Shown one piece after another: positions 2,999-4,526 of a stretch of 40,052 nt of DNA. A program made the translations under genes and the position numbers. The DNA is taken from IMG/VR virus record IMGVR_UViG_2541047786_000001; one strand, 5' to 3'. Numbering within the stretch: the first letter of the stretch is position 1; the number at the start of each line of letters is the position of its first letter. Under the pieces are notes generated by a model. It was not told where the DNA came from and ran no database searches. It worked only from the letters and a program-made list of their open reading frames with translations. This stretch comes from a virus (lineage: Duplodnaviria; Heunggongvirae; Uroviricota; Caudoviricetes).

Positions 2999-3139
2999 TC
3001 ACTCTCTTTTTCCCTGAAGCATGGCAGCGTGGCAGGCATCCTCTACGCCCTTAACTGCATCTGCGCAGTAGTTATAGCGATTGCATTCCACTAACTTCTG
3101 CCTGAGATTTTCAATTGCTTGCGCGACATCAGCCTGTAT
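2999..3139 (-). pseudogene. 3-prime remnant of an early-left gene truncated by IS911 (reads ...DVAQAIENLRQKLVECNRYNYCADAVKGVEDACHAAMLQGKRE*)
   Basis: The frame is open from the IS911 boundary at 3140 down to TGA at 2999-3001, with no start codon. Its stop is coupled to the start of the Cys-rich gene. Own translation. Confidence 0.35.
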
Positions 3140-3170
3140 TTGAAGTGGTCAACAAAAACTGGCCACCGAG

Positions 3171-3989
3171 TTAGAGTTTTTTCCAGTATCGATTTTCCGA
3201 TTCGTTTGGTGGTAACCCACCATTATATTCGTGCGGTCTTAGTGCGCTGTAATATCCAACGATATAGTCCGTTATTGCGTGAGCTGCATCGCTGAAGCTT
3301 ACATAGCCCGTCGCCGGCACCCATTCGTTCTTCAGACTCCTGAAGAAGCGCTCCATTGGGCTGTTATCCCAGCAGTTTCCACGCCGACTCATACTCTGCC
3401 TGATCCGGTATCTCCACAGTAACTGCCGGAACTGCCTGCTCGTATAATGACTGCCTTGATCGCTGTGGAACATCACCCCGACGGGCTTACCACGGGTTTC
3501 CCATGCCATTTCCAGTGCTTTCATGGTAAGCCTGCTGTCCGGCGAGAACGACATGGCCCAGCCCACTGGTTTTCTTGCGAACAGGTCGAGAACAACGGCG
3601 AGGTACGCCCAGCGCTTACCCGTCCAGATATAGGTCACATCACCGCACCACACCTGATTTGGCTCGGTCACGGCGAACTGCCGTTCAAGGTAGTTAGGGA
3701 TAGCAACATGTTCATGACCACCACGTTTATACCGGTAAGTCGGCTGCTGACAGCTGACCAGCCCCAGCTCTTTCATGAGTCTGCCAGCAAGCCAGCGCCC
3801 CATCTGGTAGCCTCTCTGGGTTGCCATTGTGGCGATGCTTCTTGCTCCGGCAGAGCCGTGGCTGATGCCATGCAGTTCAAGTACCTGGCTGCGTAATACA
3901 GCCCGTCTGCCGTCTGGCTTTTCAGGACGGTTTTTCCAGTATTTGTAGCTGCTGCGATGGACCCCGAACACATGGCAGAGAGTGGCCAC
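3171..3989 (-). CDS. IS911 orfB frame (DDE integrase-type catalytic domain), expressed as OrfAB fusion by -1 frameshift at 4061-4067
   Basis: 272-aa orfB frame in the -1 frame relative to orfA. Slippery A AAA AAG (bottom strand of 4061-4067) lies just upstream of the orfA stop. The full OrfAB transposase would span 3171-4318. Confidence 0.85.
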
Positions 3990-4015
3990 AGGATAACGCG
4001 CCCTGAGTTTCCCGA

Positions 4016-4318
4016 TTATCGAGAACTGTTCAGGGAGTCTGACATCAAGAGCGCGGTAGCCTTTTTTAATATTTCATTTTCCATTTCAATACGTTGTAGC
4101 TTTTTCCTGAGCTCACGGATTTCAATTTGTTCCGGGGTAATAGGGGAGGCTTTTGGTGTTTTTCCCTGCCGCTCATCACGTAATTGTTTCACCCATCGCG
4201 TCATTGTGGAAAGGCCGACATCCATAGCGCTGGCTGCATCTGCCACGGTGTAATTCTGGTCAACGACCAGTTGAGCGGATTCGCGTTTAAACTCTGCGCT
4301 GAAATTTCTTTTTTTCAT
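4016..4318 (-). CDS. IS911 OrfA (HTH/leucine-zipper transposition regulator)
   Basis: 100-aa protein starting [11 protein letters not shown] at ATG 4318; the 12 extra N-terminal residues in the track ORF are not used. Stop TAA at 4016-4018. Confidence 0.9.
4061..4067 (-). promoter_or_regulatory. Programmed -1 ribosomal frameshift site of IS911 (A6G heptamer)
   Basis: Top strand CTTTTTT at 4061-4067 is AAAAAAG on the coding strand, in the orfA/orfB overlap. Confidence 0.8.
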
Positions 4319-4526
4319 TATGGCACCTGTGTTGTTCTGAGGTGAGCATATCACCTCTGTTCAGGTGGCCAAATTCAGTAAACCACTTCACTTAAATAGT
4401 GGATTGCGGTAGTAAAGATTGTGCCTGTCTTTTAACCACATCAGGCTCGGTGGTTCTCGTGTACCCCTACAACGAGAAATCGGATAAACTCTATTCACCC
4501 CTACAGAGAGCAAAAGAGAAACGCCG

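Follow-up and report, generated by a model that had tools for sequence, protein, structure and literature searches.

The DNA analysed here, called the window, is the whole 40,052-nucleotide stretch of the IMG/VR record IMGVR_UViG_2541047786_000001, which represents a lambda-like prophage of Escherichia coli. The early-left (pL) operon of the prophage contains a single copy of an insertion sequence (IS) of the IS3 family, which stands in the place of a block of genes that includes the recombination genes exo, bet, and gam. An IS-associated deletion from an ancestor resembling phage ev017 is very probably the origin of this arrangement. The IS and its immediate flanks are the following:

3138–3140, no strand assigned: left triplet ATT, left deletion junction, equal to PhiR57_1 3138–3140
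3141–4390, minus strand: IS3-family element ISEc52, IS911-like, recognised from end mapping, frameshifted open reading frames, an NCBIfam match, and identity to sibling copies
4391–4393, no strand assigned: right triplet CTT, right deletion junction, equal to PhiR57_1 8540–8542

The IS is intact and exactly 1250 bp long. It is encoded on the minus strand, with the end of its right inverted repeat (IRR) at 3141 and the end of its left inverted repeat (IRL) at 4390, and its transcription is co-directional with that of the pL operon. The element starts at 3141 with TGAAGTGGTCAAC and finishes at 4390 with AAACCACTTCA. The terminal inverted repeats are imperfect, since the two IS ends agree in 25 of the first 36 positions. 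The features of IS3/IS911-like ends are present, namely the length of 1250 bp, the termini TGAAGTGG...CCACTTCA, and the terminal dinucleotides 5′-TG and CA-3′. The gene orfA (4318–4016, minus strand) encodes 100 residues and overlaps orfB in the −1 phase; the slippery motif A AAA AAG (A6G frameshift site) is found at 4067–4061. A −1 shift gives rise to an OrfAB of 382 residues that terminates at 3171 and scores 380.6 bits against the NCBIfam model NF033516 of IS3 family transposases (cut-off 160).

Copies with 100% identity to the IS of the window are present in ATCC 25922, Nissle 1917, C25, 19AR0253, and CUVET17-1136, and all of them are labelled “IS3-like element ISEc52 family” by RefSeq (PGAP). 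The IS of the window is 99.8% identical to the copy in Salmonella phage SEN22, and 94.88% identical, with 63 mismatches and one gap, to the copy annotated as IS911 in Shigella phage Sf6. The isoform threshold of ISfinder for the same named element is roughly 95% nucleotide identity. The initial annotation, which was made from the sequence alone, described the element as a complete 1250-bp IS911. The length and intactness are borne out. Judged from these identities, “IS911” is a fair family-level name for an element whose nearest named relative is ISEc52.

The window is a near-identical, colinear sibling of the Escherichia phages PhiR57_1 (PV340572) and ev017 (LR597643 / NC_049948, Jouyvirus ev017). 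The gene order, integrase, immunity, replication, and morphogenesis genes of these phages are as in the window, whereas the IS is absent from them and a 5,399-bp block is present. Positions 1–3140 of the window correspond to PV340572 1–3140 with zero differences (100%), and positions 4391–40052 correspond to PV340572 8540–44206 at 99.9% identity, with zero differences across window 4391–16164. In total, the shared backbone comprises 38.8 kb at 100% and 99.9% identity. Both IS flanks are also 100% identical to ev017, and they are separated by 5.4 kb in both phages. The alignment of the junctions breaks after PV340572 position 3140 and before position 8540, and the IS stands in place of PV340572 3141–8539, which is 5,399 bp. 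PhiR57_1 coordinates given below are those of PV340572.

According to the annotation of the PhiR57_1 and ev017 records, the lost block contains thirteen whole genes (two copies of ea22, a traR-like gene, orf61, orf63, orf60a, exo, bet, gam, kil, cIII, ea10, and ral), together with the 5′ part, the first 125 codons, of a 171-codon open reading frame (ORF). Apart from the remnant of this ORF, no homologue of the fourteen deleted proteins, including Exo, Bet, Gam, Kil, and CIII, was found in the window by tblastn (none below E = 0.03). The absence of exo, bet, gam, kil, and cIII reported in the initial annotation is thereby borne out. The same annotation suggested aligning the flanks to intact relatives, and this alignment defines the lost segment as PhiR57_1 3141–8539. 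It also allowed for related prophages that are free of the IS and nevertheless devoid of recombination genes; PhiR57_1 and ev017 carry the full block from ea22 through exo-bet-gam-kil-cIII-ea10 to ral. Of 5,426 complete E. coli genomes, 83 have the 5.9-kb region intact. It is uninterrupted and 100% identical in many of these, ABU 83972 and clone D among them; in CFT073, the region contains an unrelated IS21-family insertion (ISEc10). Because the left flank sits within an ORF whose 5′ part is lacking from the window, the change is a loss from an intact ancestor, and there is no doubt about its direction. On the evidence of these alignments, the window appears to be a deletion derivative of the icd-integrated lambda-like prophage ev017/PhiR57_1.

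The IS is flanked by ATT (3138–3140) on the left and by CTT (4391–4393) on the right, and no 3-bp target duplication is present. Exact mapping of the ends confirmed the differing flanks that had been noticed from the sequence alone, and the genuine 3–4-bp duplication that such mapping might have uncovered is not there. Ends were mapped for every retrieved copy of the window IS, and perfect 3-bp duplications were found at all six simple insertions of ISEc52 or IS911 examined:

ATCC 25922 copy A: duplication ATT
ATCC 25922 copy B: duplication ATG
SEN22: duplication ATT
Sf6 (IS911): duplication AAC
19AR0253: duplication CCA
CUVET17-1136: duplication GTC

Copies without a duplication always accompany DNA that is missing or rearranged relative to PhiR57_1 (Nissle 1917, C25, and BEC1-S17). 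Since the six simple insertions all have perfect 3-bp duplications, the missing duplication in the window is more than chance. It is no argument against membership of the IS3/IS911-like group, because it is explained by the deletion. Adjacent deletions and inter-IS recombination are the usual or frequent reasons to which the loss of a duplication is ascribed (PMC11708052).

Based on the flanks of the IS and the structures of related prophages, a two-step path can be proposed, insertion followed by adjacent deletion anchored on the sieB side, to which we give an even chance. The IS would insert into the ral-sieB spacer, duplicating CTT (PhiR57_1 8540–8542), with its transposase genes oriented in the same direction as pL. 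The DNA on the IRR side would then be lost up to PhiR57_1 position 3140 by a transposase-driven intramolecular (“adjacent”) deletion. Only CTT would then be an original flank, ATT being newly brought next to the IS, and hence no duplication would be left.

The sibling prophages display a recurrent pattern, in which an IS end is located just upstream of or in sieB, DNA is deleted leftward to a variable endpoint, and sieB, N, and cI are kept. The pattern is shared by the window, C25, and Nissle 1917, and the same leftward pattern occurs in two other lambdoid prophages, BEC1-S17 and ATCC 43896. Because leftward deletions recur from an IS end near sieB, the sieB-side flank is favoured as the original one. 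In C25, the IS joins PhiR57_1 positions 5225 and 8642, and positions 5226–8641 are lost with no duplication. The sieB-side junction of C25 is that of the clean ATCC 25922 insertion (ATT, PhiR57_1 8642–8644), with the DNA on the other side deleted. This makes C25 a direct example of a one-sided deletion beside a resident ISEc52 in the same prophage. Three direct IS copies in C25 (NZ_CP127314; locus coordinates 9245–15684) bracket two identical 1,345-bp segments, and the tandem unit, which is present twice, consists of ISEc52 and the ea22-traR-orf61 segment (PhiR57_1 3881–5225); exo through ral are deleted beside the last copy. In BEC1-S17, the IS is located between truncated ea10 and truncated sieB, without a duplication.

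The defective lambdoid “prophage 3” of Nissle 1917, which is integrated at icd, has the same backbone as the window, 100% identical over the shared parts. It also carries an identical ISEc52 in the same orientation just upstream of sieB, lacks the duplication, and has lost the early-left operon. It differs from the window in that the IS joins PhiR57_1 positions 428 and 8653, so that 429–8652 (8.2 kb) are lost, including xis and the 5′ part of int, and the sieB-side junction is 113 bp further to the right. The Nissle 1917 prophage is unable to excise because xis and the 5′ part of int are deleted, whereas the window keeps both. The published description of it is that of a lambdoid prophage of 39.8 kb that is not inducible (PMC5987069). 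The prophage at icd in ATCC 25922 is the same prophage with identical ISEc52 copies, one of them in the ral-sieB spacer in the same orientation. However, both of its copies are simple insertions (ATT and ATG) with nothing deleted. The spacer insertion is located 102 bp to the right of the window junction, and therefore it is not the precursor of the window. The temperate phages Sf6, with IS911 in ninG, and SEN22, with an ISEc52-like element in ant, also bear IS911-type elements; they differ from the window in that their elements are simple insertions with duplications (AAC and ATT) and no deletion. Adjacent deletions of the IS3-family element IS150 in the long-term evolution experiment resemble the window in having an IS at the deletion joint and no duplication (PMC11708052). 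Those deletions ranged from 14 bp to 49 kb and arose stepwise from a resident IS, with an IS preceding the deletion at the site in 14 of 14 events (PMC11708052). The IS150 cases were followed in real time with the precursors in hand, whereas the precursor of the window can only be inferred.

Several observations weigh against the two-step path. The junctions of the window, GACATCAGCCTGTATT/TGAAGTGG on the left and CCACTTCA/CTTAAATAGTGG on the right, were not found in the phage collection, the 5,426 complete E. coli genomes, IMG/VR, GTDB representatives, or JGI metagenomes. Synthetic junctions of hypothetical precursors (CCACTTCA/ATTACAGGAACTGG and ATATCACCTT/TGAAGTGG) did not retrieve a precursor with a duplication at either junction from the 5,426 complete E. 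coli genomes or IMG/VR. Because the exact junctions occur nowhere else in the collections searched, it can only be inferred in which order the events took place and which flank was the original one. The insertion in ATCC 25922 is 102 bp too far to the right to account for the right junction of the window, for which an independent insertion is needed. As far as the reference list of one study indicates, IS911-type elements move by a copy-out-paste-in route that does not cause adjacent deletions per se (PMC11708052). A mosaic structure within the IS can neither show nor exclude recombination, because all the copies compared, from the ev017-type siblings ATCC 25922, Nissle 1917, C25, and 19AR0253, are 100% identical.

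Some candidate matches were rejected. Apparent full-coverage precursor matches were two- or three-piece joins derived from the ATCC 25922-type insertions 102 bp away. A match to the right junction in ATCC 43896 (90% identity) belongs to a different lambdoid prophage, in which the IS end is 4 bp short. Targeting of the IS to a sequence resembling its own ends was dropped as being at chance level, as judged without a formal test: the right-junction target agrees with IRL in only about 8 of 13 positions by eye, and PhiR57_1 3141–3152 agrees with IS positions 12–23 in 10 of 12 positions, but out of register. Two ISEc52 copies lack exactly four end bases, TGAA at the IRR of the first C25 copy (locus coordinate 9249) and TTCA at the IRL of the ATCC 43896 copy (locus coordinate 9116), and the shortened C25 copy is flanked by a 7-bp repeat (CTCTGTT) instead of a 3-bp one. 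Such losses may have resulted from aberrant processing of the IS ends.

Recombination between two IS copies is a tenable, though less probable, explanation of the deletion. Direct ISEc52 copies would have been located at ATT (PhiR57_1 3138–3140) and CTT (PhiR57_1 8540–8542), and a RecA-dependent exchange between them would excise 5.4 kb together with one copy. This predicts exactly the hybrid flanks that were observed, and such recombination is a frequent cause of missing duplications (PMC11708052). Multiple ISEc52 copies are present in this operon in siblings, two in ATCC 25922 and three direct ones in C25. The doubled unit of C25, PhiR57_1 3881–5225 plus the IS, is the reciprocal product of an unequal exchange between direct IS copies, and so recombination of this kind does occur here. 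However, two insertions and an exchange make three events, one more than the two-step path needs, and neither the 5,426 complete E. coli genomes nor IMG/VR yielded a genome in which either site is occupied by an IS. The ATCC 25922 copies are inverted relative to each other, and recombination between them would invert the intervening DNA, not delete it. We lean slightly towards adjacent deletion with CTT as the original flank, because it requires one event fewer and because the leftward deletions recur in the same backbone. The initial annotation ascribed the arrangement to an IS-mediated adjacent deletion: the IS-linked loss of 5,399 bp stands, whereas adjacent deletion is not distinguishable from recombination between directly repeated IS copies.

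Siblings show the states of a stepwise process, with ATCC 25922 having the clean insertion and C25 the one-sided deletion, and this speaks against a one-step event, in which the IS would have been captured at a break, or would have inserted with the simultaneous loss of 5.4 kb, without staggered cleavage or duplication. Such events have been proposed for some IS5 and IS481 cases, and every deletion of the IS3-family element IS150 in the same study was explained by a prior insertion (PMC11708052). No intermediate was found in any collection searched, as a one-step event would have it, but the absence of intermediates from databases is weak evidence, and we consider this route quite improbable. 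Slightly less probable still is an assembly artefact, in which two direct IS copies with 5.4 kb between them were collapsed by the assembler. A 1250-bp multicopy repeat is a classic collapse point, the hybrid flanks are as expected from a collapse, and siblings with several copies in the region exist. However, the window is continuous over 40 kb through the IS, with clean flanks, and similar real deletions occur in many independent complete assemblies of siblings, for example in more than 15 assemblies of Nissle 1917. It could also be imagined that nothing was deleted, that the lineage never had the recombination module, and that a duplication decayed by an A/C point mutation, since two of the three flanking bases agree (TT). 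This is refuted by the relatives with 100% identity on either side of the IS, in which 5,399 bp separate the two flanks, and the left flank is located inside an ORF with its 5′ part missing; we regard it as next to impossible.

The ends of ISEc52 are clustered near sieB. At least five distinct ends lie within about 500 bp, in the ral-sieB spacer and the 5′ half of sieB (window 4391–4900; PhiR57_1 8540–9046). In PhiR57_1 coordinates, they are located at 8540 in the window, 8642–8644 in ATCC 25922 and C25, 8653 in Nissle 1917, 8852 in BEC1-S17, and 9044–9046 in 19AR0253, and ATCC 43896 adds a further one. All these copies are co-directional with pL; the exception is the ATCC 25922 copy B in orf63, at a distance of about 3.4 kb. 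The clustering could reflect a target preference or hot spot, or selection for the loss of the early-left operon. A broader proposal is that an oriented ISEc52 hot spot repeatedly seeds the leftward loss of kil, red, gam, and cIII while sieB, N, and cI are kept, possibly as a selected form of domestication, or that the window arose by a one-step, duplication-free event; taken together, we consider this unlikely. The early-left operon has also been struck independently by other elements. A different IS3-family element is present in the DUF1382/orf63 gene of HM670 (locus coordinates 2569–3880), the same gene contains ISEc52 in ATCC 25922 (locus coordinates 1411–2660), and the element in CFT073 is the IS21-family ISEc10.

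The genes and ORF pieces around the IS are as follows:

1–1143, minus strand: integrase gene, intact, 380 residues; ORF identical to the PhiR57_1 integrase
1133–1369, minus strand: excisionase gene, intact; ORF identical to PhiR57_1
1509–2997, minus strand: retained distal early-left genes, a stretch 100% identical to PhiR57_1, consisting of the next four entries
1509–1748, minus strand: DUF4222
1774–2058, minus strand: ASCH-like
2051–2791, minus strand: DUF550 / dATP-dGTP pyrophosphohydrolase
2788–2997, minus strand: small ORF
2999–3140, minus strand: start-less 3′ remnant, 46 codons and a stop, of the 171-codon ORF (residues 126–171)
4391–4526, no strand assigned: remaining 136 bp of the ral-sieB spacer, with a 17-codon ORF that no comparator annotates as a gene
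4527–5108, plus strand: sieB (superinfection exclusion B), intact; Pfam SieB, E = 9e-22
5125–5397, minus strand: N antiterminator, first gene of the pL operon, upstream of the IS; coordinates from PhiR57_1 9274–9546, a stretch 100% identical

The start-less C-terminal remnant that the initial annotation placed between the IS edge and position 2999 is real and equals residues 126–171 of the PhiR57_1/ev017 ORF. The full ORF of 171 residues is annotated in PhiR57_1 (2999–3514) and ev017 (gp37), and the frame of the remnant meets a stop three codons into the IS. No Pfam match was obtained for the 171-codon ORF, and PGAP left it unannotated in RefSeq chromosomes such as HM670 (locus coordinates 299–653). 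Its coding status is uncertain, and it may not be a real gene. Lookup of a 30-residue ORF that can be called from the remnant beside the left junction returned no record. The 17-codon ATG-initiated ORF (4441–4391, minus strand) exists as described earlier; it is not a gene fragment, but belongs to an unannotated 24-codon ORF of the ral-sieB spacer in the intact phage. Its site lies 5.4 kb from the 171-codon ORF there, and the two pieces were never one gene. Because of this distance, the finding that they do not join in frame is uninformative. The interval between xis and sieB (1370–4526) measures 3.16 kb with the IS counted in and about 1.9 kb without it, less than the earlier figure of about 3 kb plus the IS.

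The genes int, xis, N, sieB, cI, cro, cII, O, P, ninB, and rusA are kept and identical to those of PhiR57_1, and the late genes are kept and nearly identical. To the initial annotation, int, xis, and cI looked intact, and the int, xis, immunity, and replication regions are indeed the same as in PhiR57_1 base for base. A consensus scan detected no terminator-like site on the minus strand within the IS. The possibility of a new promoter at the IRR junction driving xis and int was dropped, since a consensus scan found none. N-antiterminated transcription from pL probably still reaches xis and int.

The functions lost with the block are Red (exo and bet), Gam, Kil, CIII, Ea10, Ral, and several accessory genes. 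The description of the prophage as recombination-defective holds, in that the Red and Gam genes are deleted and no homologue was detected in the window by tblastn. In lambda Fec−/Spi− mutants, the pL operon is devoid of exo, bet, and gam and, in many cases, also of kil and cIII. The window resembles these red-gam deletion and substitution mutants, which also kept the late genes. However, the lambda mutants are laboratory deletions or bio substitutions not linked to an IS, and their phenotypes are extrapolated here to the phage of the window. By this analogy, the phage would be expected to be Red− Gam−, to depend on RecA of the host for packageable concatemers, and to grow poorly or not at all on recA hosts. 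Growth on P2 lysogens would be expected from the loss of red and gam, and the frequency of lysogenisation would be expected to be lower because cIII is gone. The phage is further predicted to be Kil− and Ral−, and Kil-mediated filamentation would not be expected. It may be inducible and form plaques, because it has retained int/xis and ninB/rusA as well as the genes for immunity, replication, lysis, and morphogenesis. A defective prophage does not follow from the deletion; the phage would be host-recombination-dependent rather than dead.

Few other differences separate the window from PhiR57_1. In the spacer between genes L and K (window 32492–32496), 5 bp (GGTTT) directly before the start of K are absent relative to PhiR57_1, and the L and K ORFs are intact. 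The side tail fibre gene (stf) contains a 1-bp deletion and an insertion 4 bp apart, which compensate each other (window 38252–38256). Substitutions are clustered, with six in 154 bp of the large terminase gene (20360–20513) and four in 161 bp of gene K (32663–32823), which suggests small recombination patches and not clock-like divergence. Position 1 of the window is the last base of the int stop codon and coincides with the start of the PV340572 record. At its other end, position 40052, the window stops at PV340572 44206, immediately short of sitABCD, the manganese-transporter cargo carried by PhiR57_1. The sibling prophages are integrated next to icd. Close relatives are found in the lineage of CFT073, Nissle 1917, and ATCC 25922 (ST73).

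The deletion allele was previously unrecorded, whereas the prophage, the IS, and the class of event were already known; it represents ordinary prophage decay and no new biology. The result is of use mainly in annotating the window, a copy of an E. coli prophage that is widespread: it can be described as Red−, Gam−, Kil−, cIII−, and Ral−, with intact int, xis, immunity, replication, and late genes, and both its induction and its growth would be expected to depend on RecA of the host. It adds an allele to a natural series of ISEc52-linked erosion that runs from ATCC 25922 through C25 and the window to Nissle 1917, and this series is usable for studying the IS-driven domestication of prophages.

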